A DNA stretch of 57,419 nucleotides, counting the filler, from Thelocarpon superellum (lineage: Eukaryota): NCBI GenBank assembly GCA_026025795.1. It is 2 parts of 2 records of this genome, joined end to end, with 100 filler letters (N's around TTAATTAATTAA, not from the genome) between each part and the next. Parts side by side here need not be neighbours in the genome. Positions count along the whole stretch, not along the records: positions 28,829 to 57,419 come from JAPEUG010000234.1; 1 more part is not named here. One strand, written 5' to 3'. The position numbers and the translations under genes were made by a program. This document shows positions 36,702-57,419 of the stretch, piece after piece. Position 1 is the first letter of the stretch. Each line of letters starts with the position of its first letter. Under the pieces are notes generated by a model. The model was given only the letters and a program-made list of their open reading frames with translations, did not search any database and had not been told where the DNA came from.

Positions 36702-38766
36702 GCCACCCGCCCGTCCGTCGCTCGTCGACATGGCCTCGCCGCAAGGGCCCCGCCCGCCGCCCACCGTCACCCCTCGTCTTCATCGGCCACTCCTCTTCTC
36801 CCTCCCTCCCTCGCCTCGTTCTATCTCGCGCCAACTAGTACCGTCCGTCCGTGCGTCCGTGGTATGCCGGTAGTGTGGGAGGGTGTGATCTGATCATGTC
36901 CGTTTGATACATTTGCATGCGTCTGATTGCTCTGGTTTGGGGTGGTCTTCTGAGTTGATCCCGTTCATGGGCGGAAAGCGATTGCGGCACGACTCTCTTA
37001 CCCGACCACGCAGGGCTTCACCACGCGACGCTGACGACTTAATCTCGGTCTCACGGACGTAGACGACTCGTACACGGGCTCGCTTTGGTGGCCTGTGTGG
37101 CTGGGTTGGGGGTTGGCCGTGCAGCGTGTACGTCTGCATCTGCGTCTGCGTCTGCCCTTCGTCCTGTGTTCACCCATTCACGTTGCATTCGGTCTCAGGC
37201 ACTGCGCACACTCTCACATACTCTCATGCTCACGCATACACATGGGGTCTACTTCTCTTGAGTGGTTGATGTTGAACTTTGATCTCGCGCTCGCGCACCC
37301 AAACCCTCTCCCCCGCCCCTGTTTCTGCCCGTCGGCATTCCTCCCTTGATCTGTGGTCGAGCGATCGATTCTCACTCCAAAAGCCCTGCTGTACCACCAC
37401 CACCACCCAAACTCCATTCGCTTTTTGTTCTTCGTGGGAGGGGGCGCTTCAGCAATAAGATTGACGTGGCGATAATATCCATTTGATTGGAAAGCCCGTG
37501 ATAAAGTCGTATGAGTATGAGTCATTGTGTGTGAGACCCGGCATGGGGTAGATGGTCCGCTACTGGCAGTAACACCACAATGGTGGGGTCACGGGTGGCG
37601 TCGGAAATCCAGCCCCTGTCTTGTCGGGGAAGGTGGGGCACTCACAGTTAGCTTCCTCCTGGTCTGGTGGTTACATGCGTTTCGGCAGGGTGCAGTAGTA
37701 CCACCATCCTGCGTGACGGGTGAAACATGAAAGATGCATGTCAAGCGGGAACACCGAGGACCCCTGCTGCCGATCATGTAGCCAGCGGAGGCAAGAGCGG
37801 GTGAACCAGCTATTATAGGGATGCGATGGAGCAACCTAGGTGGCCGAGGGAGATACTGATCCCGATGGTGGGGTGTGGGACGGAGTAGCGTCCTGCTGTC
37901 ATCCTCCATCCGTGTACGGTGGTGCTTCTTCAGGCGCCTTGCTGTCCAAGCACGAGGAGTCCTCCACTCCATCCCTTGACGATGGACGAAGGGCTTATGC
38001 GTGGGTCTCCCTACTTCACGAGGGTAGCAGGGTACGACGAAGGATGGATGGATGGATGCAGCTGATGTCGTAGCGTGCACAGGGCACACGGCACACGGTA
38101 CAGCAGAGCAGCAGGGAACACACTTACTCCTGTATCGCACAGGGAATTTGCTGGACTTTTCCCGCAGTACCGTCTCACGACTGTCAGACGGCGCGTAGTT
38201 GCGGTCGTTTAGAAAGCTCGCAGGACGTGTGTACGGGAAGCATGGGGTTCAAATGCGAGTACTGGAATGATATACATGCTGTCTGCTGCATACTGCCTGT
38301 CCTGTATCTTTCACCGGCTAAATTCGAGTGAATCCTTCGATTCTCCTGTCCCGGTCTCCCTCTCTCTCACCACAGGAGATCGGATTGAACACGGCGGGAG
38401 CAGGAGAGGCAGGTCTACCATCTATCATGCCTACCGTGGACCTCACTTGGCCGGACCATGGATCATCACGGTCTTCTCCACTGTGTACCGTCCTGTACTG
38501 TATGACTCAAGTAGCACCGCCTCCTGCACGTAGTTGCCGAAGTAGAAGCATGGACGCGAACGAACCAAGCCATGGTGAGGGGTTGTACGACCCACTAGTC
38601 ACGGTAGTTGGCAGTAGTGGGACCCACGAACCACTCCGCTGGGAGCTTGATGGGAGGAAGGGATGGACGGATGGCTGGCATGGGCTATCGGGCAATGGGA
38701 TAGTACGAGCAGTTAGGCTAGGCCGACGTGGCTTTGGCAATGGCCTGTGGCGTGGGCCGTTGGCGT

Positions 38767-38832
38767 AGCCGTTGGTGCAGCCGCTGGTGCAGCCGCTGGT
38801 GCAGTCGCTGGTGCAGTCGCTGGTGTAGCCGC
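38767..38832. repeat. Imperfect 12-bp tandem repeat (GCTGGTGCAGCC) x~5
   Basis: Read directly. Confidence 0.85.
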
Positions 38833-39771
38833 AGTGCGTAGCCGCACTGGTGCAGGCGGGGAGATGTCGATCCTGGTCCCCCCCGCTTGGCCCCCTATCG
38901 CTTCGCCTCGCCTGACAAACCACCCTCGCCTTGTCTTGGGTGCAACATACCATACCGGACCGGACCGGACCAGATGGATATTCACGTCACTGCTGGGAGC
39001 TAGTGGGAACAGTGCTGAGGTAAATGAATCAAATAGATTCACTTGTGGCAGTGACCTAACTCTCTTCCTCTTTTCCTATTCTAAGTACGAGTCCTTCTTT
39101 CAAGATTGGTATCTTTCTCCCGACTTCAACATAGGCTCTCCTCGTATGTACGACAACGATAGGGTCAATGAAAAAAATACGTTATTAGCGAGCTACTCAG
39201 CATCCAGCCCAAGCGAGCCAGGCCACATGATTCGCATTCCGGCCTCTGCCATGGCTCCACGATGGGTTCTGTGGTCGCCACCTAGACCATCGGAGTCTTC
39301 TCAAAGTATGGGCTTCCCATCGGATCCAGAGTACAAGTACGAGTACTGAGCTTCATTGGTGCGTAGCAGTTAAGGGATCAACGACACATCAACGCCGGTG
39401 TCGAGGCGAGCAGCGACGGAGACGCCCGCGCCGAAAACCTGGAACGGTCCGTTCGAATGGTAGGGTAGTGGGGAAGGTTATTAGTGGTACCCGATACCAC
39501 TGGTAAGCTTTCTTTGGCATCACGACGATCCGTGCCGCCATGTCTGGTGCTGTCGAATAAAGAAAAGAGGACTAACCATCAAAGTTGACTTCAGCTAAGC
39601 ACACGCTACATGGAAGCACACGCTGACCGCAACTGATCTACTAGAAGTTAGTGACGTACCATAGCTCCTGGCAGATATATCACGCCACCGCCACGCTAAG
39701 TGACGGGTAAATCTAGCTGGATCTATGGATCTACTATATCTCCACGCAACTGGATCGGTTGGTATGAAGTA

Positions 39772-40740
39772 CTAAGGTGGTGAGTTAATTCTCGAGACAG
39801 CTCTGTGGACTATACCACAACTCGTACAACTCCATACAATAGCCAAGGTAGCTTGGCGGTACAACTTCATGCATGGCGCACAGAGCTCCACGGCGTAGCA
39901 CCATCGACAGATATAACGGGAACCGTCGACCTGATGCTGGCGAAGAGACGCTGTCGAGTTGTCGCATCGGCAAGTTGACGTCATCTTCTTTCCCTTCCTG
40001 AGCGAGCGGGTTAGTACCAAGGATGCGTATTCGTCGTCATCGAACGAGAGGAGACAACTTCCAAGGAATTCGAGCGACCAATCTGCCACCTCCGCACCTT
40101 GGCGCAATTTCGCAGCCAACTTTGCTATCGGCCTGGCCGCAGTCCGCCGGCCAGTGTAGATCATGTGATGGGCAAGAGGATGCTCGCCCGGTCAGAGGTT
40201 ACGGAGAAGGAGATAGTCGAAAGCGATTGGACCACATCTACCACGAAGGTTCACATCTGCGCCGCTTGTAGGAGGACTTGCGCGCTCGCGTGAAAGGAGG
40301 GCGAGACTGCGAGATGCAATGCGGTATAATTTGTCGGCCCACAGCAGTCCACCTCTGCGCCTCCTTCTGGTAGGATGTGGATCGTGCTTGCTCTGTCCTT
40401 GGTAGCTGCAATGTGTAGCATCTGCCACCACGAGTCTCCTAGGCGCAAGATTGTGCTGGCCCCAGCTCTACGAAGAGCCCAAACTGTCGTGTCATGACCG
40501 CCATCGCCTGCGTGTGTCAGCGCAATCAAGCCAAAGTCGTTCACTGTGGCCACTGCGACGGCCTTGGTCAGAAGCAGTTCGACCACGTCTGCCTGACCAC
40601 TGCAGGCAGCCTTGTGGAGGGGGGTGGCGCGATCTATGGAACATGCGAGCGGATCCGCACTCCGATCAAGCAAGGCTTCCGCCACAGAAGACGTCCCCTC
40701 GTAGCAGGCGAGGTGGGCGGGGGGGGGCAGTTGTAGGGGC
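39772..40740 (-). pseudogene. Degenerate ankyrin-repeat + ZZ-type zinc-finger gene fragment
   Basis: Ankyrin consensus segments (HLACYEG..SVAEALLDRSADP, TPLHKAACSGQADVVELLL, TALHLAV) and CD.....GSRYICRWC...ELCAPC lie in different frames; no convincing start. Confidence 0.7.
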
Positions 40741-40967
40741 GATGGGCGTAGATGCGCTCCCAGATTGTTGCGGCTTGGGGCTTCTCCGTAGGATCGAATA
40801 CTACCGTTGTGGCTCGCGTGGCACGTGCACCCGTCCATAATTTGGGCGAATGGGCGAACGAGCTCAGGCTGCTAGTCGTTGCGCTCCGATTGATCATCTA
40901 CAAATTTTGAGCCGCGAACCATTTTCGACGGGCTGATGGAAATGGGTTCGGAGTGATTGGCTAAGAC

Positions 40968-43018
40968 ATGGAATCTAAGGTGCTGTGCACCATATGCCTC
41001 CGACGGTGCCTACGAGCCAGCACTGGCCCTTCCATCGGAAGCCCCACTCCTCTTCCTCGACGACCCAAGCTCGTCCCGACGAGTGGATCATTCGCCCCGG
41101 GATCATGGATGCGCTCGACCTACGCCACCGCCGTCGTCGTGGGCCAGGCTCAGAGAAGCCCAGGAGTCCAAGTGGTCTGGTCGAAGCCCGGTCGCGGCAA
41201 TGCACGTGGCGAGAACTCGGAGGGAGATCTACGCCGGCGCCGACCGGACCTCAACGTCGGCCTTGAGCTCAAGTACCTGCGTGATCCGGTCAAGCTTGCG
41301 GACCGGGTGCGTTTTGCCCTCCGCGATGGCCAGGTGGATCAGGCCATGGACTTGGTGCGGGAGGCTAGCAAGGATATCCCGTGCACGGTCAGCTGGAACC
41401 ACTTGATGGACTATCAGATGCAGCGAGGAAGAGTCGCTGCATCCCTGAAGACATACAATGAGGTGAGGGTCAGGCTGGAAAGGGTGGGTAAATCACTGCT
41501 GACTCAGGGGAACCACAGATGAAGAAGCGCGGGCAGAAGCCGGACGCGCACACGTATACGTTACTCCTTCGAGGATTGGGCGCGCACACGCAATACCCAA
41601 GTGCGCTGGGGAAGGCGCTCTCAATCTACCATTCCCTGTTCACGCCCAAGGCTCCGGTGAAGCCGTCCATCATCCATGCCAACGCCGTGCTAAAAGTCTG
41701 CGCGTTGTCGGGCGATATGGACTCGCTGTGGGGCATCGCAGCCAAGTTACCCGACCGAGGGCCTGGAGCGGCGGACAATTGGACCTTTACCACCATCTTA
41801 AACGCCATCCGGCACGACGTTGAGGCGGCCCCTCGCTTTCATATATCGCCCGAGCAGATGGCCCAACGAAAGGAAGAGGCCATCATCAAGGGCCGGCGGA
41901 TGTGGGAGGATATTGTGGACCGGTGGAGGACGGGCAACCTTCGAGTGGACGAGGATCTGACATGTGCCATGGGCCGACTCCTCCTGATTGGTGAACGCCC
42001 TGCGGACTGGGACGACGTCTTTTCCCTGGTGGCGCAGACCATGAACGTGCCTCGCCTCGTGCCCCGCCTAGGCACGAATGCCCGAGCGCCAGCAGCGGCC
42101 GGGCTCACTGGATCGGCACCAGATCCATCGCCCCGAGACCTGGCGGATGCCGACAACCTCTTTCGCTCCTTACACGGAGTCGATGCGCACGGTCGCGATC
42201 GGACCAGCACCTTTACTTACGGCGAGCCCCAGACCCAGACGCTCTCGCTGCTACTCGACGCATGCTCGAAGCTCCGGATTAAGAAGACAGCAACGGATTA
42301 CTGGGAGCTCTTGACCGATTCCACGACGTATGGCATCCGACCAGACTCCAACAACTACATCAGCTATCTGCGGCTCCTTCGATTTACGCGAGCCAGCTCG
42401 CAAGCCACGCGACTCCTGCTCGACGAAGCCATGCACAGCCGCGACGCCGCCTTTGTGCGAAAAGCCTTCCGCGTCGCCATGAGCGCATGTGTGCGGGACA
42501 GGAACAACCCACACAGCCTCGAACACGCACACCAGCTCCTCAAAGCCATGCAGGGCCGCTTTTCCGACACGGACATCCGAACGCTGATGCTGTACATGCA
42601 GCTGACAACGTCGACAGACGACGCGAAAGTCATGCTCCAGATTCTCGACCACGTGCGCCCGGCCTTCCTCAACCTGCGCAGCCAAATAGCCTACGGCCAC
42701 GCGAACACGCTCGATATGCCGGAGCGGTGGTACCGCGACATGTCGCTTGATCTGGCCCGGCGCATGATCGGATGTTATGATCGTCTCATCAATCGTGGCG
42801 AGAACAACCCGCGCGTCTTGGACCACTATTTCGAAGAACGCAATCGTCTCGCTGCTTATGTTACCCGCTATAACGTGCCCGGTAAGGAGGTGGTGGGTAG
42901 TGTTGGGAAGAAGAAGAAGAGTGGGAGGGAGGAAGAGGGTGCGGATGGAGTGGAAGGAGGGGAGGGAAGGCGGGCAGAGAGGGTCAAGACGGACGATGAT
43001 GTGGATGAGACCACATGA
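40968..43018 (+). CDS. Pentatricopeptide-repeat (PPR) protein, likely mitochondrial; intron 41463-41518
   Basis: Arg/Ser-rich presequence-like N-terminus; PPR motifs TVSWNHLMDYQMQRGRVAASLKTYNE/MKKRGQKPDAHTYTLLLRG, IIHANAVLKVC, WTFTTILNA. Confidence 0.9.
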
Positions 43019-43198
43019 CCCGATGTACCATATCATGCTGGATTCTTCCTCCATCCAGGGTGGAACATGTACCCAAAGAAACCTATAGAGATGGAGATGG
43101 ACATGAACGCTAGATGCTGCATCTTACCCCAACTCCCATCCAAGCAAGGCCCCGTCTGTTTCTCGAATCCAATCTAATGCAATTCAATCCAGTCACGG

Positions 43199-44012
43199 TC
43201 AAGCCTTGATATCAAAGCTCGTGCCACAGCCACAGCTACTAGTCGCCAGGGGGTTATCAACAATCTTAAACTGACTGCCGATAAGCTCCATGGTATAGTC
43301 GATCTTGCTCCCCTGTAGCAGCTCCAGGCTCGGCTCGTCCATGACGACCTTGGCGCCCGAGCCGTCGCCCGCTTCGAAGACGGTATCGTCCGTGGCTGAG
43401 ACGGCGTCGGTATTGGTCAGAGACATCAGGTATTGGAATCCATGGCATCCGCCGGATTCCACGGTCACGCGTAATGCGAGGGAGGGGTTGTCGTCTGTTG
43501 ACATGATTTCTTTCAGGCGCTAGGTAACGTTAGCGGTGATCTGCATCGAGGGGGTTCTCGAGGAGGATTGGAGGTATGCCATCACGTACATTTGCAGCTC
43601 GAGGCGTGATGTCTATGCTCATGGCATTGCCATCTTCGTCGTTTCGTGGATTACTCAGGACAACGGCACTTGATGGCGCCGGGGTGGGAGAGGTGGCTGT
43701 CGCGGTGGCGGCGGTGGCGAGGAAGTTCCTGTTGGTCGTCGGGAGGAAGGCATGTCGAGTTGCACGGACGACAGGTCTCTGCGTCGGGAGTTTCCTCCGT
43801 CCAAGACGTGACCTTATGCTCTGCCAAGGTAGGAGAAAGTCAGGGATGCTTTCGATCGAGACTTGGGTCGTGGCGGTTCGAAAGGTGTGACTATGAGGTG
43901 AATGTGGAGATGCGCTTGACATGAAACTACAGCCGTGTATCGGGACACTGCCTGCGCACCCTCCGGCGCGCTTTGCACGTATCAGACGTGATGCAACTCT
44001 CCACTCCGACAT
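43199..44012 (-). CDS. ISA2: A-type Fe-S cluster assembly protein Isa2; intron 43589-43520
   Basis: ITPRAAN/RLKEIM...LRVTVESGGCHGFQY...SSCGCGTSFD; N-terminal mitochondrial presequence-like region. Confidence 0.95.
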
Positions 44013-44244
44013 CGTGGTGATTGTGGCGACCGGGTTGGCTTGGTATGGAGCTATGTGACGATGGACAGTCGAAAGAAAAAGTAGCCTGCAATGTGACTAG
44101 TAGTCACTTCGTCCCACTGAAGCCGAGGAATTATTAGAAATCCAGACGACGTCGTTAAACATCCCGTCACGAGTCACAAGTCACGAATGACATGGACGAC
44201 TCCATTTTCTTCGATGATACCCCACTTCATGACCTACTCGAGAA

Positions 44245-45720
44245 TACAGTCACATAGGAACCCAATGCTCCGCCGAGCAAAAATGTGGCTATTGTGCAGG
44301 CCGCCACACGACCAAAGACTGCAGCAATAGGGAGGCGTCATCCTCCAACAAGTGCGTCGTCTGTGACGGGAGCCACACGGCCTGGAGCCCTTCATGCCCG
44401 GCACAGAATAAAGAGCAAATCCAGGTCAACCAGGCAAAACAGGAGCGAATGCCTTTCCACACGCTCAGGTGTCAGACGATACTGTCAACACCCTCAACCA
44501 GGCCTTCCATTCCATCTCTGGCAGCCACGGTCCCTGGACCTCCCACGGGAGACAGGCAGTCAAGGTCCAGCTCACCGACTAAAAGACCATACACGAAACG
44601 CCCAAGGACAGCATCCACGGAGAAAGCGACAAGCCAAAGTGGGAGCACGATAACAGACCTCCACCCGTCTAGCCAACAGTCGATCAACTCTATGATCGAG
44701 GCGTGTCGAGGGGCTATTGCGGGCCGCCCTACCGTCCTCCTCGGAGACGGAGACGCCAATTCCAGGCTGAGATGGAATGAGCCGGGCACAACTCAGAAAC
44801 GAAGCCAACCAAAACCGAACAAGGCTCGCAGTATACAGGCCAGCCGGATGGATGAGTCGTAAGACCTCCTTCACAATCTTGCAGTACAACGTCATGAAGT
44901 CAAGAGATATAGTCATGGCCCCGCTCTTCCGAGATCAGCAGATCACCGACTTCGACATCGTGGCGCTTCAAGGACCCTGGAGGAATCCTTTTATCGACAC
45001 TACCTTCCATCCCCTGAAGGACCGCTTTCACCTCGCCTACTCCCCGGAGGCGACCACGCGAGTGTGCTTCTTCATCAGTAAGAGCATCCCGACGACGGAC
45101 TGGTCGATCGTACACCACTCGTCAGACCTCTGCACCCTAAGGATGGCCTGCCAAATGGACGAACAAACGACACAACGTGTCTATATCCACAACGTCTAAA
45201 ACCCGCAGCCAACAACTGCCAGTCCGAATGGCACACTGCCTCTTCTACACACAGCCCTCGACGCAGGAAGGGGCCAGGAGCATGCGGTACTAGGGGACAT
45301 CAACCTTCACCACCCGCTCTGGTCAGGGTCGACCCATCTGCAAAGCCCCGATGCAGATTACCTCCTGGATAACCTGTGCGACCATCAACTTCAGTTTTTA
45401 AACGCCGGAAGGCGCCACGACATTCATAGGGAAAGGAGCAGACAACACTTTCGACCTCAACTTTGCAACGCCCTCTGTCGCGGACAGGATGAGGTCTTGC
45501 AAAGCGACAGACTCTATGCACCACGACTCCAACCATCTACCGATCGCCACAACCCTCGATCTCTGGACAGCACCCACCTTACAGCAAGCCCGGCCTCAGT
45601 GGAAACGTACGGATTCTAAGGTGCTGCTGGATACCCTGAAGACACCTCCTCACCGTCGAGTCAATCACGACGGCTCGAGAACTCAACGATATGGTTGAAC
45701 AAATGGTGCGAGCCCTGGCC
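44245..45720 (+). mobile_element. Non-LTR retrotransposon (LINE, Tad1-like) relic: ORF1 zinc knuckles + disrupted ORF2 APE endonuclease; no RT
   Basis: ORF1 end reads HIGTQC..KCGYCAGRHTTKDC...KCVVCDGSHTAWSPSC. ORF1 stop (44862) overlaps the ORF2 ATG (44852): ILQYNV...DIVALQGPW...IHNV*NP...VLGD.N.HHPLW...SNHLPI, with a stop and frameshifts. Confidence 0.9.
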
Positions 45721-45746
45721 AGTGTCCTCAAACGCCTGCATTCGTT

Positions 45747-46135
45747 TCACGCTGAAGCTTTGGAATCCGTCTCTTTTTTGGATCTTGAGCTCTTAAAGCT
45801 CTTGATCACATTCTAGATACGCAGGTCATGCGTTAGTAGCAGAGCGCTTCAACATGAGGTTAGATACATACCGCTAAAGCTTCAGGATGCACTCCGCTCT
45901 CTATCAACGATGCGCAACATGCCAGTTGCGAACGAGAAAGACCAGTGTTCCGTAATGAAATTTAGTGTGACCATCTTTTCAGGAATGAAGGAAACCGTAT
46001 CAAAAGCGTAGACATCTCGTGAAGAATATCGAGCGTTTCACGATGAGCATCACGATGGGACGTCTCGCGACGAGATCTTTCACGCTTGGCAAGCTCTTCC
46101 TTCGCTTCAAAGCCTTGATTATCATTGTCAGGCAT
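45747..46135 (-). pseudogene. MZT1: MOZART1/Mzt1 (gamma-tubulin complex activator) pseudogene
   Basis: RETLDILHEMSTLL/NTGLSRSQLACCASLIESGVHPEALA/NVIK is the Mzt1 core. Intron 1 (46000-45950) has AT..GG ends; exon 3 appears frameshifted (AAG-AG-CTT-TAA). Confidence 0.82.
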
Positions 46136-46374
46136 CGTGGTGTAAGACTGTGACAACGGCCTCGACTTCGAGAGATTGGATGAGTTTGGTTTTAGAAGAG
46201 AGCAGCCGGTTGGTGACGTGAAAGAGGGGAAACAGGTGCGGCGAGATTGATTGATTGAGGATTGTTCGGTTATAGCCGACTGCTCTCTAGGGCATAGCGA
46301 GTAGAGCCCTTAAACTAAGCAGCTGAAGGCTGCTGAGCGGCGTTGCGATGACTCCACCACGGCGAGTCCTTACA

Positions 46375-46649
46375 GGTTATGAGCCCGGTTGAGCTGGTGG
46401 TAGCAGTCCACTTGAGCGCCTGAGTCCGTCAGCTGCCTGTTACTGGGATGTCGTCGTCGTCGTCGTCTTAGTCGTCAGTCGTTGTCAACCGTCGTCGTTG
46501 AAGTCGCCAGCCGTCGGCCGTCATCGTTGAAATCGAACCATCAGTTGTTAGTTGAGGGTGTAGGAATCAGAGCTGAGTTGCTAATCTACGCGTAGTCTGG
46601 GATAGTAATAGGAGTGGGCACGTGACCAGATCACGTGCGTGCTCCTACA
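46375..46649 (+). mobile_element. Copia-type non-autonomous remnant: PBS-like GGTTATGAGCCC, short internal part, purine tract, 91-bp LTR-like unit (46559-46649)
   Basis: ...TACA|GGTTATGAGCCC at 46371-46386; TTGAGGG|TGTAGGA junction; the unit has TGTAGGA...TCCTACA termini. Confidence 0.6.
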
Positions 46650-46848
46650 CCAGCTAAGTTACCTCAAACGCTAGTCATCCACATCACATATATATGCTCG
46701 TGCAGTCCTCATACGCAGAGGGCCGGCCGGTTAGGGTGTACTCATATTTACCATTGGTAGGGTTCATACGTCCTGTCACAGAGCCGGTTCATTTCACGAG
46801 AGCAATCTGACGGACTCCAGCTACTTCTACGCCAGAAGTTATTGACCA

Positions 46849-49161
46849 TCATGTGGGCTTGACACGGATCCCCAGCCCGTCTGCCTCTAGCGGCTCTCGT
46901 CTTCTCTTGTTTCCAGAAGATGGCGACAGGAGCAAGGGTGGCGACTCCCGGACGATACCTGCCCTTTCAAAGTCGATCACCATGATTCGACGCACCCGAT
47001 CATCCCACAAGATATTTCGCGACGACTCGTCGTTGTGCTGGATTCCTGCGTCCCGGAGGCCTTTGAAAGCTTGAGCGATCTTGCTCTTCATGCGAGGGTT
47101 GTCCATGATACTGACAGGGTCGTCGATGCGTCGGCCAGCCCATGAGAGGAGCAATATGTGCATGATTCGGACCCCCTTGTCGTAGTAGTAGGGGTGGGAG
47201 AAGTCGATGCTTCCCAAGCAGACGGGCAGAGAGACTCCCTGGAGTGCCCGGAGATGATCGTAGACCACTGCTTCGTGTCGGATGTCATCGACGAAAGCCT
47301 CGACGGTACCTTTGGCAACAAGTGTGTACCCGTATGAAGCCAATGTTACCCTGAAAAGGACGCCGCGTGCACCCTCCATGCCCATCGGCTCGAAGTGATT
47401 GTCCAGCGTGCGCTTGAGCTGTCGGTGGAGAAGCCTGAGAAAGGATGTTCGATCGATTCGGTGACGACCGTCATGGCCTCGATGTGCAGGCACGTTGGGG
47501 CACTTAGGATCGAGAAAGTCTGCCCGCGTGAGGCCCCGCAGACAATCGTGCGTACAGAACTCCCGGCGTCTGTGTTGACGCCTGGAATCGGAAGCGGTTG
47601 AGTTGGCACCCGTAGAACTGGTTGGCTGTGGGGCCCGACGGGTGCGATCGGCACCAGGGTCGCGGGTTGGAGTATCGGGATCGTTGAAGTCCGAGTCTGA
47701 TCCTGGGCTTTCGGCGTCGTCGTGGATCGAAGCCTCTGGTGAACGACAACCGGCTCCGTTCATCGATCGAAGCTTGATGGGAGATCTGTCCTCGAGACGG
47801 TAGGTACTTGGGCGGTAGGAGCTTGTCGAGGCGGCCTTTCTGGTGCTTGGTGGGATCTCCCGCAGGATCGCGTCGTAATCCACCTCCCACGGCGAAAGTT
47901 GAGCGATGAGGCTCTCCCGCCACCTGTTCGTCTCTGACTTGGATTCGAGCGCGAGCAGACTGAAGGCCAGGATCTGAGCTAGAGCAGTGCGGTGCGACCA
48001 ATCCTCCTGTGGAAACTGGTCTCTCTGTGACGCCACATCGGCACTGGGGTCGACGAGATGGTATAAGATGGTGGCCGGGTCGTCTAACGGGACATGGAGG
48101 AAGACGAAGGCCTGGCCGGTCGTGATGTATCCGTACTGAACGCCACACTCGATCATATAGGAGTAAATCTGAGTGACGGCAGCAGCAACCAGTCGATCGG
48201 AGTGGTATCTGAGGTGGGCGTCTTCATCCTCAGGAGATGGTATTGTCGGTCGATCGATGACGTCCGGGCGTAACTCCATCTGACGAAGCCCCGCCTGCAG
48301 CAAGGCGAGCGGCATCTTGTGTGGCGGTTTGCGCTCGATGAGGAAAGCGAGACGGCGGCTCCTGTTCTTGCCCTGGCCTTCGACGTAGACACAGACCTGA
48401 TCTGTTGCGGGAAACTTCGAGCCGCGAATTCGAGCGGCCGGAGTCGACGGCCCGGAAGTTCTCTGGCCAGATCGCCGGACAACTTCTTCGCTCTCATCAC
48501 TCAGGGCGTGCGGTTGGTGTTCGAAGGTCACATGTCCGCCGAGCTTGAACTGTGCAATGACTGGATCGACGGCGCAAAGGTGGTTGAGAATGAAGCTGGC
48601 AGGTATCTCCACCGCTTGGCGTTGAACATCGTGAAGGTCCGCTTCATAGCCCAAAGGCTGCGTCTTGATCCTCTTGCCCTGGCTTTCGACCGAATGCTCG
48701 CTCTCGAAAACTCGTTGACCGTGCTCCGGGGGATATGCCGAATAAAGCCGCGTAAGCACGTTTTTTTGTTGCGGGAGGAATTTATCCCACGGCGCCAGAT
48801 GCCTAGGATGTGTTTTCCCGTCCGGCTTGGTGATTCCGCCCGTCGACGTGAGCGACTTGTCCGCCTGGATAGTGATGTTAAGGAAGAGATGCTGGTGGCA
48901 AAGCCGGAGATATTCGACGAGCGTGGTGTTGTTCAGCCGTCGTTCGGCCTCCTCCCGAGATGCCCGTTCGTCCTGGACGCGTCGCTCGGCCGCCACTCGA
49001 GCCGCGTCTGCCTCCTCCCGCGATGCCCGTTCGTCCTGGACGCGTCGCTCGGCCACCACTCGAGCCGCATCTGCCTCCTCCCGCGATGCCCGTTCGTCCT
49101 GGACGCGTCGTTCTGCCTCTCGCAGAAGTTTCTGGAGTGCCTCGATATTCGGTCGAGACAT
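46849..49161 (-). CDS. Spok-family (spore killer) protein: coiled-coil repeats, PD-(D/E)xK-like nuclease, Cys cluster, kinase; intronless, ~770 aa
   Basis: TTLVEYLRLCHQHL...TSTGGITKPDGKTHPRHLAPW; DQVCVY...FLIERKPPHK...QIYSYMIECGVQYGYITTGQAFVFL; FCTHDCLRGL...LDPKCPNVPAH; GARGVLFRVTL..YGYTLVAKGT...HNDESSRNILWD...IDFERA. Architecture matches Podospora SPOKs as recalled. Confidence 0.85.
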   Translation of the reverse strand: MSRPNIEALQKLLREAERRVQDERASREEADAARVVAERRVQDERASREEADAARVAAERRVQDERASREEAERRLNNTTLVEYLRLCHQHLFLNITIQADKSLTSTGGITKPDGKTHPRHLAPWDKFLPQQKNVLTRLYSAYPPEHGQRVFESEHSVESQGKRIKTQPLGYEADLHDVQRQAVEIPASFILNHLCAVDPVIAQFKLGGHVTFEHQPHALSDESEEVVRRSGQRTSGPSTPAARIRGSKFPATDQVCVYVEGQGKNRSRRLAFLIERKPPHKMPLALLQAGLRQMELRPDVIDRPTIPSPEDEDAHLRYHSDRLVAAAVTQIYSYMIECGVQYGYITTGQAFVFLHVPLDDPATILYHLVDPSADVASQRDQFPQEDWSHRTALAQILAFSLLALESKSETNRWRESLIAQLSPWEVDYDAILREIPPSTRKAASTSSYRPSTYRLEDRSPIKLRSMNGAGCRSPEASIHDDAESPGSDSDFNDPDTPTRDPGADRTRRAPQPTSSTGANSTASDSRRQHRRREFCTHDCLRGLTRADFLDPKCPNVPAHRGHDGRHRIDRTSFLRLLHRQLKRTLDNHFEPMGMEGARGVLFRVTLASYGYTLVAKGTVEAFVDDIRHEAVVYDHLRALQGVSLPVCLGSIDFSHPYYYDKGVRIMHILLLSWAGRRIDDPVSIMDNPRMKSKIAQAFKGLRDAGIQHNDESSRNILWDDRVRRIMVIDFERAGIVRESPPLLLSPSSGNKRRREPLEADGLGIRVKPT
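48938..49118 (-). repeat. 63-bp coding tandem repeat (ERRVQDERASREEADAARV[V/A]A) x~2.8
   Basis: Near-perfect nucleotide repeats in the Spok N-terminal coiled coil. Confidence 0.93.
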
Positions 49162-51087
49162 AGCGTCGCGAGAGTGTTCGACGAGCGTGGTGGACGATAG
49201 TGCGACTGGTATGATCACACTCTTTCAGGTGGCGCAAAGTCAATCCATTGAGGGACGGAGGCGCGTAGGCGCGTAGGCGGGTAAACCGGGAGGGCGACAC
49301 GTCTGTAATCACGTGATTGGTGTTTGGCAACGGACACGGCCGTCAATTGTCAACCCAACCGAATCACTCTTCTCCACACTACGTGACTGCAAAGAGACTT
49401 ACCGTCGAGGGGTACACTTGATCATTCCCTCGAAATCCATCTCTACCGCACATCATGTACCTGCTACACCGGAAGCTTCTTGTGCCAGACATCCCTTACA
49501 GATGGCCGATGAAACGCCCAGGCCAGCCCTTCATCCTCGCTCACTTCGACCCCCTGCCCAAAGACCGCGCGTAGTTGCCCTTGACCATCGCCTCAACGAT
49601 CACCCCAGGTGGCGCGATCAAGAAGTTGTACATTACATGCCGTCCGACGGGAAAGAAAGAGCAACGACGAGAAGCTGCAAAGTGAGTGAGACGTACTATG
49701 ATCCAGCAACGACTGACCTACAGTGGCCAAGTGCATTAAGGGATACTTCAACGGAGGCCTCCCGCGAGCACCTCCCGCTCCTGCCGGCGCGCTTGGCCGA
49801 GATGGGCGGCGTGACGCCAGCGCAGGCCATCGCCGATGCCTACTACGTCGTCGCGGGCATCGCGCTTGTCGTCTCGACGTGCTGCCCCTTAGGCTTGCGC
49901 GGGCTCGACGGCGAGAAGGGCAGGGGCTGAAGGCGCTTGTCGAGCAGGGGCCTCAGAGTGAGGGCACGAAGAGGCCGCCTTACTTGCGCTTCCTGCGAGA
50001 CGACGTCATTCTCGGCGTGACCGACGCAGATATAGGCCTGAGCTATCTCGGCGTGGCGGGGTAAGGTTCTCTCGCGGACAGGTCGACCGTCGTGACCTCG
50101 CAGGGCCTCTTCGGTCGGCATCTCCCTGTGCATCTCGCTGTTTGCGCACGCCCACTTCATCCGCTCGGCCCTATGTGCGGGCGACGCGACGGGGCATTCG
50201 GACAAGATGAAGGCCGAGTGCAAGCGGGCGTATGTGCTGGCGGCCGGTGCATCAGCTCCGCCTCCTGCTGTCCCCGCTGACCAATTGTCAGAGCTCGGTG
50301 GGACGACGCAGCTGACGGCCTTGCACTTCGCGCCAGTTGTCGGCCAATGATGAGGGATCATGTGCCCGGTTGATCGTTGAGCATGGAAAGTGTACGTCTT
50401 CTTGGTGTCTTTGGTCTGTGTCCGGCGTGTGATCATTTGTTCGGGTACATCCAACCGCTTATATCTTAAGGCCTGAGGGAAGGCGTACCACGAGCCATCG
50501 GCGCACTGCCGGGCGAGGTAGATGCCCCGAAGGCAGTGCGTGGATGATTTCTGTCGTGGTGGAGATGTTCCGGCATCCGAAGCACGGGACTTTCGGCCCT
50601 TGTGGCAGAGGCAGACGGGTTGCATCAAAATCGGACCTACCGAAGCGTTGTGGGATGTGGACCGGACGGGTAGTCGGGCCTTGTGGCAGAACAGAGGCGC
50701 ACGCAAGACATGGAGGGACACGGAAATGTTGTGGCGTGTCGAGCGGGCGGAACGGACGGAAGCTCGGAGCCTTGTGGCCGATTGAGCGTACAGCCGATTG
50801 CGCGTCGTCATCAACCCGATATGGCGCCGCGGCTGAAGACAGAATTGGCCTAACACGATGTCAGGTGGGTGGCATAGCCGCTGCACCCCACGGCAGCCCC
50901 CCACTCGACGCAGCCCGTGACTCCCGAGTGGAGACGGGCCCTGCTCGTCTATATAAACCTGTTGTCCCACTTCCTTACGCCCTCTCTCGCACCCTCCTTC
51001 ACACTGCCTCACTACGTCTCTCTCAGCGCATTATTCCATCATCCATCTCCCGCGATCTGTCATATCTTCGCACAGCACTTCTGCGGC

Positions 51088-52376
51088 ATGTCTCCCTCCG
51101 GCGACCTCCCGGAGATGTCGGTACCGCAGCGAAAATTGGAGGAAGTGCCCCTTTTCGCTCCACAGCGCAAAGCTCTACGTGGCCGCGATCGCTACAGGGA
51201 ATCACGGTGCCTCCCGTCGTCTGATCCTTTTTCATCCGCCTCGGGCACAACCCTCGACGAGCGGTCGCTCATCGCGAACGAGACCGATGTCTTTCCACTA
51301 TGCGACTCGGCATCGCTCACCATTGACCAGTGGCCCGAGTCCGCTCTCGAGGAGGTCATCGTGTACCAGGGCTGCCCGTCGTCCTTGGTCAGCCTGCTGG
51401 ACGCCGACACACGCAGCAGCGTTGTCGTGTGCGGTCGAGTTCGGGAGGTTCCTAGAGGCCAGCAGCTTCTCGGTATTTGTGCCCCTGGCTACTCGCCTGG
51501 AATCCACGCTGACCGCAACAGTACCAGACCTCGGTGTTGACCAAATGCATGTCGTCCTCGAAGACGTGCGCCAATTCTCCCATTGCACCTACGACGATGG
51601 CTCCTTCGTTATCTGGGCCGCGGGCCGGGCTGGCTGGTTCAAGATCCGGCCCGCAGACGAGTACCGCGATATCTACGCCGGCATGGACGTTGCAGTACGA
51701 CTGTTGCATTTCCTCGAGAGCCATTACTCGGCGCACCAGCACAATGGGAGGTAAGGCAGCGTCGATGAGGTGTGGGAGACGTATACAGTCAGCCACGACG
51801 ACTGCGCGGACGAGACCGGAGCCGCCGAGCTCTTCTACCGCTACCGCGACTTCCTCATTGCCGCTATGCTCGAGGAGGACCCACGCCTGGTTTGGAGCGG
51901 CACGCCATTCTTTCGGCACATGCGGACGCGCTACCCCGACAGCTTCTGGCGCATCCAGTCGCGTCACGCGCCGATGATCGAAGGCAGAGATTTGGGTGGG
52001 GACCCGCAGCTCCATAATGGGCGTAATAGTACGGTATTCGTGCCGAGGAAGCACAGCAGCTGACTGTGTCCAGTGCAGGGGGGGGGATTGGCCGATTAAG
52101 GCCATCCTCGACATCAAGGAGCCCTCAGCCGGAAACGTCATGGCTCGTGTTCGGTGGGAGCCCACTGCAACACGTATCGAGGACGTGCCACGGCTGCAGC
52201 GAGAGGGTCAGGTAACAAAGATCGTCCTGTGTGACAGCGGCAGAGCCGTGGTCCACTGGAAGCCCACATGGGAGTCAATGTCGGCGTTATCAAACACTGA
52301 GGCGGCGATGAAGGAGGTGATATCTCGACACTCGCGCCGAGGTCGGCGTTGCTTGGAGATTCGGCGGCGCAGGTAG
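51088..52376 (+). pseudogene. RFTS (DNMT1-RFD-like) domain + C-terminal chromo-like segment; in-frame TAA at 51752-51754
   Basis: DQWPESALEEVIVY...VSLLDA....VVVCGRV/..VVLEDVRQFS...DDGSFVIWAAGRAGWFKIRPA..YRDIY..M..AVRLLHFL...AELFYRYRDFLI..M...W..TPFF.HM resembles fungal DNMT1-RFD proteins, followed by WPIKAILD...ARVRWEPT and VVHWKPTWE. Introns at 51473-51521 and probably 52034-52073. Confidence 0.75.
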
Positions 52377-53118
52377 GCAATTCCTCGAAGCTGCTGTTGA
52401 ACTACACAACTAGACTTTCCTAGCCTCGCGTATATGGGTGGATCAGGGCTTGGACGAATGTCGGCCCGGCGCTGAAAGTCTGGCTATTATCGTCCGAGGT
52501 GATGGCCATCTCTTCAAGTGAGAGGCGTTTTCAGGCAAGTCAACTCTCCAGGCTGTGCCACTCACCCTACCGAGACTGCTTTCGTGACTTCGGCCACCAA
52601 TACCCTTTTACGCTTCGTGACCCGAGTCCCTGCGTCGATGAGATAGGGGCCGGTGCAGGGGATGTACCAATGGTGGCCACGCCGCTTCCCACTCAGGCGA
52701 GGGCGGATGGTCGCGCATACGCCCCATGCTCTCTGACTTGATTGGCAATGCACAGATGCGATGGCGCTACCGGCAGGTCCTCTCTTTGGCGGTAGTGAAC
52801 GGCCAGAAAGGCGTGCTCTTGCTCGACGCGCGACGAGCTTATGTCAAACCTCAATCGATGACCGCCCATCCTAGATATTCGCTGCGCTGTGCAGGGCTTC
52901 ATGTGGTGGAGCGTCAAGAGCTTCAGGGCGAATATCATCTGCTGAACAGCTGCAAAGCATATTGATTGTTGTCGAACTCTTCAACCATCAAGCAGACGAG
53001 GGTCAATCTTCTCAATGGAAAAGGAGCTGACAGAGGTAGCGGGTGTCTTGCTCTCGGCAGCCATCTCATCCCCCAATATGACACTGAACGGGGATATGCT
53101 CCGAGAGCCATCATGAGG

Positions 53119-53888
53119 CTTGTAGGGGAGACCTTTTCCTGTTCCGGCGCGTGTGGAGTATTCAAAGACCTCCCCTACACGGGCAGACGTGTAGCAGAAG
53201 ATCTGCAGCGCCGCAGTAAGCTGCACCCTGTAGGCTTCATGCTTGTAGTCATGCCAGTCGTTCTGCCACAGCTGTCGGAGAAGTGTGACAAAATCCTTCA
53301 CCGTGAAGAACTGCCGCTCACGCTGAGTCGTCGACAGCCCGTGTTTCCTCGTGAGTTCACCCTTGATGTACTGAGCCCGTCAGCGAACGAACCAAAGAGG
53401 GTAAATGGGACCAATGGAGCAGTCGGGATCGCGGGCGATGTGGTGCGTACATTGAGGATGGATCACTTCACCTCCGCAGGGATCGGTTTCTCATTCCGTC
53501 GGGCCCAGGCGGATGCGAAGCCTCGCCAGGTCTCCCGAACCGTAAAGACCTTCGCACGACCATCTTTGTCGTCCATCCCTTCCATGCCCAGCGCAACGAA
53601 CTCAATAAAATGTTTCGCGGTCTGCAGATCATGAGGGTTGGCGTCAGGGCGAGTCTTCGTATACCTGGGTGCAGTCAAGGGGACCGGCCGTCAGAATCAC
53701 CGAGGAACATGAGGCGGGGTAGAGAGGACTGACTGGTCCCAGAGGCTCCATTGCCGCGCGTAGAGGGCCTCGGTGCATGGTTGGAGGGAGGAGTGGACGG
53801 GGGACGGGTCGATGGTGGACATGACCTCGTCGAATCCCTTCCTCCGAGCACGCTCCGCCTTCTCCTCAGGGGTCTTCCTCTTAGGCAT
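53119..53888 (-). pseudogene. DUF3435-type tyrosine recombinase (Starship 'captain'-like), truncated, with a premature stop
   Basis: Spliced (introns 53733-53665, 53450-53371): YARQWSLWDQY...DLQTAKHFIEFVA...TVRETWRGF...VK*SILN/YIKGEL..KHGL....RERQFFTVKDF..LLRQLWQNDWHDYKHEAYRVQLTAALQIFCYTSARVGE...GKGL.YK. Includes the candidate catalytic Arg motif (SARVGE); TGA at 53465-53463. Confidence 0.8.
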
Positions 53889-54470
53889 CGTGCGCGCCCG
53901 AGCGGCGGGAAGCAAGGAGGAGATGTCCGCCTAGCGGACAAGAGGATGGGAGAGCGGTCGTCGGGGACGGTCTCGGAGCAATATTGACCGGTCGCGAGCG
54001 AGGATGAGGATGGAGCCGACAGGACGGAGGATCAGAATGGCCGAGTGAAGTGGAGGAAGTCGGAGAGCAGGGCGACGTTCGGAGTGCGGATGGCCCTGAC
54101 CCTGTAGAGGGCCAGCGGCGGGCCCGCGGCCGGGAAACGGGGGGGTGGGCCCCATGCCGGTGGTGGAGAGCCCGAAATGGAGCCTCGAGGGACAATCGGC
54201 AAGAGTTGACGAGGTCTGCGGCAGGAAGATGAGGCTACGAGAGCATGGGGCGACGGAGGTGAGCGGCGGGTGAGGCCGGGGTGAGCGGCGGGTGAGGCGA
54301 GGTGAGCAAAGCGGCGAGAGGGTGAGGCCCGATGCAGAACGGGAGGTGTGGTTATTCGGGCGTGAATACAAAGAAATACGGAATCATACTATGACTCCGT
54401 GTTAAGCTTGATTGTAGAAGTCTGCCAAATGAGACAATAAGCATTTCTCGCGACGTAAAATATAACGTTG

Positions 54471-54560
54471 TGTAGGAATCAAAGCTGAATTGCTGATCTA
54501 CGCGTAGTCGGGATAGTGATAGGAGTTGGCACGTGACCAGATCACCTGCGCGCTCCTACG
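54471..54560 (+). repeat. Second copy of the ~90-bp LTR-like unit (probable solo LTR)
   Basis: About 9 differences from 46559-46649 by hand alignment; flanks CGTTG / (A)CGTCA resemble a decayed 5-bp TSD. Confidence 0.85.
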
Positions 54561-54666
54561 ACGTCATTTACTAACCGATGGGCCCGCTACCTCAAGCACC
54601 GGGAACTCCGAGTCAAGCCGAGTCTAAGCCGGGCAAGCCGAGCATTCTGTTCCGGACAAATCAACC

Positions 54667-56376
54667 ATGGCGGAAGCAGATCAAGAAAGTAGTCGTGCAG
54701 GACACGAATCAAACATGTTTGCAGACTCAGAATCCCTGACGAAAGAGTATGCTCAATGGCTAGACGAGGCAGACCCGCTCGTGCATTTCCGGGAGGAGTT
54801 TATCTTTCCCACCAAGATTTCATTGAAGAGCAAGAGCCTGGGTAAAGCAAGTCCTGATGCGAGACTTACGTCCATTTAAAACATCACGGCTAAGGCAGAT
54901 AGGCTCAATCCAGGAGAAGGACGATTCCGAACCATGCATCTACCTCTGCGGCAACTCCCTGGGCCTGCAACCACGGCGAACGAAGGACCGAATCCAGGCA
55001 TACCTAAGCCTATGGGCAGAAAAGGCCGTGCTCGGCCACTTTGCCGAGTTGGAAGAGTCCCCTATCCCGCCTTTTGTGCACCTGGACGAGATTGCGGCGC
55101 AGAAGATGAGTCGTGTGGTGGGAGCTCGTCCGGACGAAGTGGCCGTCATGGAGACGCTGTCGGCAAATCTTCATCTGTTGATGTCGAGTTTCTACCGACC
55201 TGATGCAGAGAGATACAAGATCATCATCGAGGGCAAGGCCTTTCCCAGCGACCATGTAGGCTTCGTGTGAACCCGATGGGAGAAGAGCCGCTGAGAGATC
55301 TCTTAGTATGCTGTGGAGTCGCAGATCCGCAATCATGGGCTCAACTCCGCCGATGCGTTGATACTGATCGAGCCGACGACGGCGTCAGATCCCACGCTCA
55401 CGACGGCGCAGATCGTGTCGGTCATCGACGAGCACGCTTCCAGCACCGCCCTGCTCCTCCTCTCGGGGATCCAGTACTACACGGGCCAATACTTTGACAT
55501 ACCCACCATCACGGCACACGCTCAGGCAAAGGGAATAGTAGTAGGGTGGGACCTGGCGCACGCCGCAGGAAACGTGGAGCTACACCTGCACGAGTGGAAC
55601 GTGGACTTTGCCGCGTGGTGCAACTACAAGTATCTGAATTCGGGAGCGGGATCTATCGCGGGTCTATTCGTGCACGAGAAACACGGCAAGGTGGACGATG
55701 AGAAGCTAGCATGCGGCGAATATGGCTATCGTCCGCGCCTGGCGGGATGGTGGGGCGGCAATAAGAACCGGCGCTTCATCATGGGAAACAGTGCGTTTCC
55801 ACCCACTCCACTTGACCCCCTCGCACTCATGGCAGGGTGGTGCAGGGAGTAAGGAAGTGGAACAAGCTAAACCGGAGGACAGAGTTCCACCCGATCCCAG
55901 GGGCAGCCGGATTTCAAGTCGGCAACCCGTCCGCACTAGACACGACGGCCGTCCTGGCCTCTCTCGAGATCTTCAGCTCCACGACTATGGCCGCGTTACG
56001 GGGGAAGAGTATAAAACTAACGGGCTACTTAGAGCATCTTTTACTCCATTCTCATTCTTCCTTCCGCAGCTCCTCCGACCCTGCAGGAGCAGGAGCAGGA
56101 GCAGCAGTAAGAAGAGGGGAAGGAGGGGCAGAGAAGCACTACAGCATCATCACGCCCTCGTCACCGAAGAGCAGAGGCGCACAGCTCTCCATCCGCCTGT
56201 CGCCTGGCCTGTTGGACGGGGTAATGGCGGGCCTCGAAGAATCCGGCGTCGTGGTCGACGAGCGCAAGCCCGACGTCATCCGCGTCGCGCCCGCGCCGCT
56301 CTATAACTCTTTCGTCGACGTGTGGCGCTTCGTGCAGATTTTCAGGGACGTGCTTGAGCGTCTTCTTGACCGGTGA
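54667..56376 (+). CDS. BNA5: Kynureninase (PLP-dependent); introns 54842-54902, 55256-55307, 55791-55882
   Basis: [99 protein letters not shown]. Confidence 0.96.
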
Positions 56377-57119
56377 CAAGTGACGAAAAGTAGTCCTCCG
56401 GCGAGAGATGGTGAAATTGAGAAAGGTCTCGTGCTCAATCTTCCACGACGTTTAGCAGAGTTGCTCATGAGCGTCGTTGAGTGTGAACGAGACGATCAAT
56501 ATGTCCATTTCTTCACCCTGGCCTATCGACTCCCTTCATTCCCCCTCCCGCCATACCTACCTTACCTTACCCTACCCTACCAATTCCTGTACTACGGGCT
56601 CCAATTCATACAGGACCCTCCCCATCCTAGCCCATCCTATCAATTTAGAGTAATGCCTGAAATGTGCCCAAGAGCAGCCCAAAAAATTCCGGGAAGGTCA
56701 TGCCGCGAAAATGCCATGAAGATGCCATGATGATGCAGGGGATACGCAGGGGAGATGCAGGGGAGATGCTAATGCATACATGCGCGCATTGCGATGCAAG
56801 TGCGGATGAATTTCGTGTCGCACAATGATGGAATAAGTTCACGGTGTAGGGGATCGATGAGATGATGATGGAATGTAGGTGAGAAGGCTGGTCGCAGACG
56901 TAGGTAACACGATAAAGAGGACGGGTTTCTCTCCCTTCTTCTCGCTCCCGGGAATATTGGAACGACGCTGAAGATGTTGGTGGTGTTGAAGGCGATGATG
57001 ATCGAGGTGATGGTCGTGATCGTGCGGGTGAGAGTAGTAACGAAGTCCATGGCGGGGTAGAGGATGACAGTGAAAGCGAAGATGAGGGACAATGAATACA
57101 AAGGGCCACGTCACTCCAG

Positions 57120-57419
57120 TCAGGAAACTGTACATGAGCTCGTAGATGACCTGGACTTGAATTAGTACCGATTCCTTGCTTGCTGTCTACACAGGCGCAC
57201 CTCCTTACCACTGTTGAGCCTCGATTCGACGGATCCATCGAGCCGCAATCTTCAATCGTTCCCGTACGCTCTTGGTCAACAGCAGCTTGTATTTTTCGTC
57301 GTCCGAGATGGGCAAGATGCTAGCGAACCAATACGGAAAACAGGCGGGGTCGTCCGGGAGGTCTCCGTAGGCTGCCAGGACTCGTTCGTGTAACCATGGC
57401 GCCGAGCTGGCTTGCATGC
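57120..57419 (-). CDS. 3' end of a LON N-terminal-domain/RING protein (LONRF/CrgA-like), partial; last intron 57208-57151
   Basis: PWLHERVLAAYGDLPDDPACFPYWFASILPISDDEKYKLLLTKSVRERLKI is the LON-N C-terminal helix pattern; spliced tail WSSTSSCTVS*. Confidence 0.82.

Follow-up and report, generated by a model that had tools for sequence, protein, structure and literature searches.

Can a meiotic driver outlive the mobile element that carried it? This question is raised by a stretch of 57,419 nucleotides from the moss-associated ascomycete Thelocarpon superellum (assembly GCA_026025795.1; the whole stretch is called the window here). In this window, an accessory island of about 10 kb, flanked by an A-type Fe-S carrier gene and a kynureninase gene, holds an intact gene of the Spok family and, 4 kb from it, a truncated gene for a tyrosine recombinase of the DUF3435 family, the kind of gene found as 'captain' in Starship elements. 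Few meiotic drivers that consist of a single gene are known, Spok genes among them, and it is their association with Starships that accounts for the movement of drivers from genome to genome. We suggest that the island is, on balance, probably what is left, decayed and immobile, of an Enterprise-like (Kirc-family) Starship with the Spok gene as cargo. We regard this reading as the best available but as unproven, and the observation behind it as largely real. The initial annotation of the locus had likewise proposed an immobilised, shrunken Starship; the recombinase fragment and the intact Spok gene, 4 kb apart, were borne out, whereas nothing that would set a Starship insertion apart from co-located debris was found: no terminal direct repeat beyond chance, no boundary, no empty site and no further copy.

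An intact Spok gene

As had been claimed, the Spok gene is a complete open frame (Table 1), and it is whole by every test applied to its sequence. PF27653 (SPOK2_N) is recorded on the database protein that is identical to the window Spok and on 16 of 16 search matches, and in the Atlas the same family is present in 95-99% of the members of the three nearest clusters. The local Pfam collection, which has no PF27653 model, recognised a Kdo kinase domain at the C-terminus (22.1 bits versus a cutoff of 21.3). The closest homologues, unnamed, are 59% identical, followed by proteins of Botryotinia and Monilinia at 42-43% identity. A profile search designed to reach the named SPOK proteins of Podospora yielded two fragments but otherwise nothing beyond the family members found before, and tblastn of Spok versus a plasmid collection gave no match, as expected.

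The motifs of the window protein were matched to SPOK3 through its published domain description, which supplied their definitions (nuclease, QxxxY, C-x3-C-x13-C-x5-H-x7-H and kinase Asp; PMC6660238), and not by direct alignment. Every element of that description is present: the PD-(D/E)XK nuclease core (D254 and E276-R-K278), the QxxxY motif (Q331-IYS-Y335), the Cys cluster starting at C536 (C-x3-C-x13-C-x5-H), whose last His lies one residue nearer, at x6 instead of x7, and the kinase catalytic loop (H709-N-D711) followed by IDFE at 729. Across an alignment of 15 Spok homologues E276, K278, Q331 and D711 are invariant, and D254, Y335, C536, C540, C554 and H560 are at least 90% conserved. This alignment holds 15 of the 16 family members, P0011, a shorter record with the same Monilinia locus tag as P0006, being omitted. 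Near the N-terminus a tandem repeat in the gene encodes a coiled-coil repeat (Table 1); a repeat or coiled coil of variable length is part of the SPOK proteins as PMC6660238 describes them.

A truncated recombinase gene transcribed towards Spok

The right end of the island is occupied by a recombinase gene, which the initial annotation had read as a DUF3435-like pseudogene on the minus strand. Its start codon and its family were borne out, and two apparent frame changes proved to be canonical GT..AG introns; the spliced relic is an open frame of 245 codons. A phmmer search of 1.84 billion representatives with exon 3 alone returned 221 proteins at E<=0.001, of which 35 reached E<=1e-10. When 17 recombinase homologues were scanned with Pfam, 10 reached the PF11917 cutoff, one stayed below it and six gave no match; Chromo was found in two of the 17 (P0052 and P0130) and a C2H2 finger in one (P0114). 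A Cys/His block following the recombinase core is common to most long relatives in the alignment.

Homology to DUF3435 proteins is limited to codons 1 to about 209 of the relic and ends near 53119, just past TSAR..GLPYK. In tblastn, each of 19 queries matched 53110-53888 and no other place, with no alignment extending past residue 215-240 or so of the query, and a profile built from 16 full-length relatives matches at positions 2-57, 54-118 and 123-209 with E-values of 6e-8, 3e-17 and 1e-36. The relic keeps the single invariant column of the recombinase alignment, which would correspond to the first Arg of the R-K-H-R-Y pentad. Because only the first 209 codons or so remain, the encoded protein cannot be an active recombinase. 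The rest of the gene was not found elsewhere in the island by tblastn or by the family profile, and across the 57-kb window the profile detected no second fragment, the next match having an E-value of 1.4. A frame, RLTLVCLMVEEF.. near 53010, resembled the next exon of the relatives by eye, and it was dropped because the profile did not detect it.

Of 14 aligned database homologues, most of them short fragments, 10 end or lose similarity directly behind GLxY(K/R), where V is the usual next residue; this suggests an intron read through by gene callers. In the window, homology ends at that same GLxY point without a GT, and hence the deletion breakpoint probably lies at or near an exon end; no metagenome contig spans it (53104-53123). 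Moreover, the remaining exons retain their frame and both splice sites, suggesting a fairly recent deletion and not long independent decay.

The recombinase relic stands at the island end; its transcription runs into the island, and Spok follows 4 kb downstream. Gene content, order and orientation, the truncation and the intact Spok residues, like the housekeeping surroundings, are direct observations. A captain position at the element end, pointing inward, is described as conserved among Starships (PMC9156397, PMC11162782). In the Enterprise element, or Spok block, the first open reading frame (ORF) is Kirc, described as a recombinase with a Zn finger and a chromodomain (PMC8092012, PMC11162782).

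Table 1. Coordinates of the island features and of the two flanking genes, as positions along the window
Feature	Position	Strand	Remarks
A-type Fe-S cluster carrier (ISA-like), left flank	43199..44012	-	ATG 44012; Fe-S_biosyn E 4.7e-11
LINE relic	44233..45700	+	CCHC-knuckle ORF1-like part and endonuclease domain (Exo_endo_phos_2)
MZT1 (MOZART1) pseudogene	45740..46138	-	three exon-like blocks; MOZART1 E 6.5e-14, 51.9 bits
91-bp repeat unit, copy A	46558..46648	+	TG..CA ends, inverted GTAGGA/TCCTAC
Spok-family gene, intact	46849..49161	-	770 aa, no intron needed; PF27653 SPOK2_N, Kdo kinase, motifs
63-bp tandem repeat in Spok	48947..49117	-	2.7 copies, 95% matches; encodes N-terminal coiled-coil repeat RVQDERASREEA x3
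Divergent intergenic stretch, Spok to RFD-like pseudogene	49162..51087		1.9 kb; no recognisable coding remnant
RFD-like pseudogene	51088..52376	+	homology of 51280-51973 to residues 3-220 of 592-aa P0168
DNA between RFD-like pseudogene and end of recombinase frame	52377..52980		0.6 kb; no Pfam and no recombinase-profile match
Truncated Kirc-like (DUF3435-family) tyrosine recombinase gene	52981..53888	-	ATG 53888; 3 exons, 2 introns
Recombinase exon 1	53888-53734	-	
Recombinase intron 1	53733-53665	-	69 nt, GTCAGT...CAG
Recombinase exon 2	53664-53472	-	
Recombinase intron 2	53471-53371	-	101 nt, GTGAAG...GCTGAC...CAG
Recombinase exon 3	53370-52981	-	
Upstream region of recombinase relic	53889..54469		GC skew 0.37; 22-bp tandem repeat 54256-54307
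91-bp repeat unit, copy B	54470..54559	+	direct orientation relative to copy A; kynureninase ATG 107 bp downstream
Kynureninase (BNA5-like), right flank	54667..57419	+	multi-exon; ATG 54667; Aminotran_5; E 1.2e-46 vs human kynureninase chains; span to window edge, gene end not mapped

Other contents of the island and its surroundings

Between Spok and the recombinase relic lies a pseudogene on the opposite strand, which had been annotated as an 'RFTS/chromo gene'. A word-indexed search of 5.8 billion proteins for homologues longer than 291 aa found a single one, P0168, a hypothetical protein from a Thelocarpon metagenome-assembled genome (MAG) (E 1.6e-51, 59% identity) with no Pfam domain on record, and judging from this search the gene family looks very rare. 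The first intron of the pseudogene (51473-51521) is canonical, and its 3' part is unrelated to P0168. In tblastn P0168 aligns straight across the TAA at 51752-51754, which is thus a true nonsense codon; a 42-nt intron over this TAA was ruled out for the same reason. Of the two domains in the former name, the first is a weak, sub-threshold lead, DNMT1-RFD (PF12047) scoring 11.8 bits (E 0.24) on the window piece and 15.6 bits (E 0.017) on P0168 with a cutoff of 22. The second was not borne out, since 52074-52373 gave no Pfam match (PF00385) at E<=5, its best matches in the PDB were unrelated (E 1.3), and BLASTP to the chromodomain-bearing P0052 reached only E 7.3. In the stretch between this pseudogene and Spok, the six-frame fragments gave no Pfam family at E<=0.01 and no match to the recombinase profile. 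It contains a 142-codon ATG frame (49502-49930, plus strand) with a hydrophobic end segment and no family match.

The left part of the island consists of two relics, both recognised before and both confirmed. In the long interspersed nuclear element (LINE) relic, Exo_endo_phos_2 scores above its cutoff at 45200-45616 (E 4.4e-7, 30.2 bits versus 27.4) and again in another frame at 45402-45695 (E 0.0021); an in-frame stop lies at 45197-45199, a frameshift is present, and CCHC motifs can be read directly in the translation. With the endonuclease present and no reverse transcriptase found in the Pfam scans, this is a 3'-truncated LINE relic. The MZT1 pseudogene was scored on a read-through with X at the stops, in which two stretches contribute to the MOZART1 match. 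Its first intervening stretch, of 51 nt, contains a stop and begins with AT and ends with GG, and hence the copy is probably dead; the second intron is canonical. Since it has introns, it is a DNA-level copy and not a retrocopy. An AT..GG intron would be odd if this were the only MZT1 of the genome, and a second intact copy is expected elsewhere.

Beyond the LINE endonuclease, none of the 112 six-frame fragments of the island that were scanned contains a reverse transcriptase, an integrase or gag, and none contains the Starship-specific cargo FRE, DUF3723 or OCH1. The 112 were drawn from a total of 136 with a length of 45 aa or more; the other 24 are fragments in alternative frames inside Spok. 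A 'Copia remnant' once assigned to the island was therefore not supported at protein level; a 91-bp unit with TG..CA ends lies there instead. Upstream of the recombinase ATG, strand skew is strong, and TRF reported 2.4 copies of a 22-bp repeat of GAGGTGAGCGGCGGGTGAGGC (Table 1).

The window is fungal DNA of about 58% G+C, and its content outside the island is housekeeping. A Pfam family was found in 12 of the 32 long frames scanned (two from the right flank, and 30 of the 43 that span 170 aa or more), including NFACT, STIMATE, JmjC/PHD, NAD-glutamate dehydrogenase, ADE2-type AIR carboxylase, ankyrin and PPR. The proposed position of the island between two core genes was confirmed by both neighbours (Table 1); in the PDB, the Fe-S carrier on the left matches chains of the IscA/SufA/HesB type with E-values from 1.6e-18 to 5e-7.

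The 91-bp repeat unit

Two copies of a 91-bp unit in direct orientation, 91% identical, are the only copies in the window, and they form the only long-range repeat connecting the island with anything else in it. What the pair encloses is precisely Spok, the recombinase relic and the RFD-like pseudogene between them; the LINE and MZT1 relics lie outside. The unit has internal palindromes, including a 10-nt palindrome, CTACGCGTAG, and a 39-nt hairpin (z -3.4). In two moss-metagenome runs (X2 and X3), word depth is 134-306 over copy A versus 2-5 over single-copy parts, and 21-46 over copy B at 54529 (X3/X2). Moreover, in metagenome contigs unlike sequence begins exactly at both ends of the unit. 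High word depth together with such unlike loose ends indicates a high-copy family. Its 24-nt core had no match in Joint Genome Institute (JGI) metagenome contigs and none in 12 metagenome loci with related recombinases, in which the 91-bp unit as a whole was also absent.

No target-site duplication was found for copy A, for copy B or for the pair, and no resemblance of the unit to a tRNA, to 5S rDNA or to any Rfam family was detected. A single event probably did not produce the pair, given a divergence of about 9% between the copies and recombinase exons that can still be read through and spliced. The upstream flanks of two other copies share CGTAACAT by eye, and copy B has CGTAAAAT at this place. 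Such shared flanks hint at a long terminal repeat (LTR) with an internal remnant, and a solo LTR is also possible in view of the TG..CA ends.

Evidence for and against a Starship origin

In the history that we propose, the recombinase gene would have stood at the element's 5' end, pointing into it. Most of the cargo would have been deleted, and the RFD-like gene would have been hit by a nonsense codon. Having lost everything after about 209 codons, the recombinase can no longer cut and join DNA, and thus the remnant cannot move by itself. By analogy with the Podospora SPOK proteins, Spok would be a one-gene toxin-antidote system, in which the PD-(D/E)XK nuclease domain would kill meiotic products without the gene and the C-terminal kinase domain would protect carriers. 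Through such an action, the gene could persist or spread by drive without transposition. The joint arrival of recombinase and Spok, the insertion of the island and the activity of Spok are inferences.

A number of results weigh against this history. The recombinase itself is one source of them. Its fragment was assigned to a Starship family by the architecture of its relatives and not by phylogeny; four of the five pentad positions are lost, everything after the first Arg being gone; and PF11917, whose match on 53119-53888 the initial annotation had set as a test, gives no match on the relic, so that this test formally fails, likely because the relic overlaps only the first 60 or so of the 418 positions of the model. 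The island as a whole is another. Its base composition and its indices of repeat-induced point mutation (RIP) equal those of the flanks, and RIP was ruled out as the cause of decay, as no RIP signature is present anywhere in the window. The LINE relic and the high-copy 91-bp unit point to a place where debris collects. Furthermore, the island may not be one unit, because the 91-bp pair separates 46.6-54.6 kb from the LINE and MZT1 relics.

The ends of the island gave no boundary. They share four 8-mers versus a mean of 2.5 in 200 shuffles, i.e. no direct repeat beyond chance; one of these candidates, ACGACGTC at 44146 and 54558, was rejected as being within chance and resembling a CRE-type promoter palindrome. 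An Enterprise insertion would be marked by an RGGTAG target-site duplication in a CTACCT||AGGTAG target, or would lie in 5S rDNA. RGGTAG occurs at 53 sites in the window without a convincing boundary pair, and the site at 45000-45005 was ruled out as the left boundary because it lies inside the continuous LINE frame. Against 30.8 sites expected, the count of 53 was reached in none of 100 shuffles; the excess is window-wide, independent of the island, and probably reflects codons or composition. 5S rDNA is absent from the window and from the 12 related loci.

Neither was an empty site seen. A search of sequencing runs returned the probable source run and four metagenome runs of one other study, in whose short contigs nothing joins the two sides of the island. 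Over 38000-57419, contigs of these runs match the window at about 97.5-100% identity in both flanks and in parts of the island (LINE relic, Spok, unassigned stretch, recombinase relic), with the island pieces at about 99%. Hence the island is also present in another environmental population, although the cover is thin and proves little. In the left flank (39650-39977) 8 of 328 letters differ, and in island pieces 0-3 per 245-434, numbers too few to interpret. Word shares of 0.20-0.21 in X2 and X3, obtained with a query that was half flank and half island, were set aside as a sign of an empty site and ascribed to low coverage instead.

Linkage in relatives is the last point of this kind. In the 12 metagenome loci with related recombinases (42-49% identity), ten of which are shorter than 3 kb, no Spok homologue was found. 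In the Thelocarpon MAG, a Spok fragment (60% identity) lies on a 259-kb contig and the RFD-like homologue on a 192-kb contig, so the two are not linked there. The initial annotation had stated that separate and syntenic presence of the island genes in relatives, with no empty-site allele, would refute its reading, and for these two genes the evidence leans that way.

Alternative origins

The pieces could instead be unrelated debris in one tolerant intergenic spot, where every other piece came in independently (recombinase fragment, LINE relic, MZT1 copy, RFD-like pseudogene and 91-bp units), Spok was resident or separately acquired, and no Starship carried the pieces together. We consider this account unlikely, although it has to be taken seriously. 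At least three unrelated kinds of repeat and pseudogene lie within 10 kb, the composition of the island equals that of its flanks, the boundaries, an empty site and further copies were all unfound in the searches above, and in the Thelocarpon MAG the RFD-like homologue and that of Spok do not share a contig. Moreover, among the best 150 relatives of the recombinase fragment only about 30 exceed 300 aa and the remainder are short fragments; since most database relatives are so short, such pieces are common. However, chance accumulation would have to produce a Kirc-like recombinase and Spok in captain-first orientation, the exact known arrangement of Enterprise. No second recombinase fragment occurs in the 57 kb, and the retained frame and splice sites suggest a fairly recent deletion.

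The 91-bp pair allows a different view of what the unit is. The true unit would be the 8.0-kb segment 46558-54559, bounded by the TG..CA repeats, with the LINE and MZT1 relics outside; it could be a composite or non-autonomous element, or the product of recombination of a 91-bp unit on a circular intermediate with a genomic copy. That the sole two copies in the window share one orientation and have precisely Spok, the recombinase relic and the RFD-like pseudogene between them argues for it, as do the high copy number and sharp ends of the family and the palindromes and 39-nt hairpin, which may be of the type used by recombinases. We nevertheless hold it to be quite improbable. The copies are about 9% apart while the exons are intact, which makes a single duplication unlikely; neither copy nor the pair has a target-site duplication; the 24-nt core is unmatched in JGI metagenome contigs and the 12 related loci; and the TG..CA ends, with the related flanks of other copies (by eye), fit solo LTRs equally. 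In addition, the Starship direct repeats described so far are short, with curated insertion sites of at most 30 bp (PMC11162782). A bolder version is a long shot in our judgement: the 91-bp units would be the working ends of a miniature non-autonomous 8-kb Spok shuttle, moved in trans by full-length Kirc-like recombinases elsewhere in the genome, and the dozens of other 91-bp copies would be solo footprints or landing sites.

Significance

Spok homologues on Starships, small degraded Enterprise copies and captain-less Derelicts are already in print. If the derelict Starship reading is true, the island would represent a compact natural end state, with a ruined vehicle and a driver that is still complete. 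The known host range would be extended, and the understanding of Starships and Spok genes would be left unchanged. In this lineage, which is moss-associated and has its nearest named homologues in lichen-associated and Leotiomycete fungi, neither Spok nor Starships are known to have been studied. Moreover, the locus offers a small and easily cloned Spok allele with all catalytic residues, suited to asking whether drive outlives mobility. Only the 91-bp repeat pair could change current understanding, if it is functional; as a shuttle, it would make a Starship-derived 'MITE-like' vehicle (after miniature inverted-repeat transposable elements) that moves a meiotic driver and whose terminal repeats greatly exceed the described Starship direct repeats in length.

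Comparison with known systems

Cryptons are tyrosine-recombinase DNA transposons of conventional size, in which, as in the island, a tyrosine recombinase is the only defining gene. To our knowledge, cargo of the Spok type does not occur in Cryptons. Target-site duplications may be lacking in them (PMC8092012), and Starship recombinases are described as a superfamily separate from them (PMC11162782). Spok genes also exist outside Starships, for example Spok2 of Podospora. Spok2 has the same single-gene toxin-antidote layout of coiled-coil repeat, nuclease, Cys cluster and kinase. Unlike Spok2, the window Spok has a recombinase fragment 4 kb away, and its killing and resistance are predicted only.

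Cargo that outlives its captain is known from the captain-less 'Derelict' Starship-like regions of Macrophomina phaseolina (Gluck-Thaler et al. 2022, PMC9156397), which are read there as old Starships with a degraded captain. According to the same source, Derelicts were recognised by the cargo FRE, DUF3723 and OCH1 and by similarity between copies (PMC9156397). Unlike them, the present island has none of these three genes in the fragments scanned, is known in one copy, and keeps part of its captain.

Enterprise elements range from 110 to 247 kb, compared with about 8-10 kb for the island, whose recombinase is reduced to about 209 codons. The host here is a different, moss-associated ascomycete, no RGGTAG / CTACCT||AGGTAG boundary was identified in the window, and no second copy or empty site is known for the island. 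The likeness to Enterprise, or the Spok block, of Podospora anserina (Vogan et al. 2021, PMC8092012) is that a DUF3435-family recombinase comes first at one end and Spok is cargo. The Kirc layout of recombinase, Zn finger and chromodomain is seen only in relatives of the window fragment, the window copy having lost that part. Closest in condition are the degraded Enterprise copies of P. comata, described as 39 kb in strain Wa139 with Kirc interrupted and as 5.5 kb in strain TD (PMC8092012), which likewise are reduced in size, no longer mobile, at a fixed locus and left with a captain that is broken. The genes that PMC8092012 describes as shared by these remnants include no Spok homologue, whereas in the island of T. 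superellum Spok is the best preserved part.

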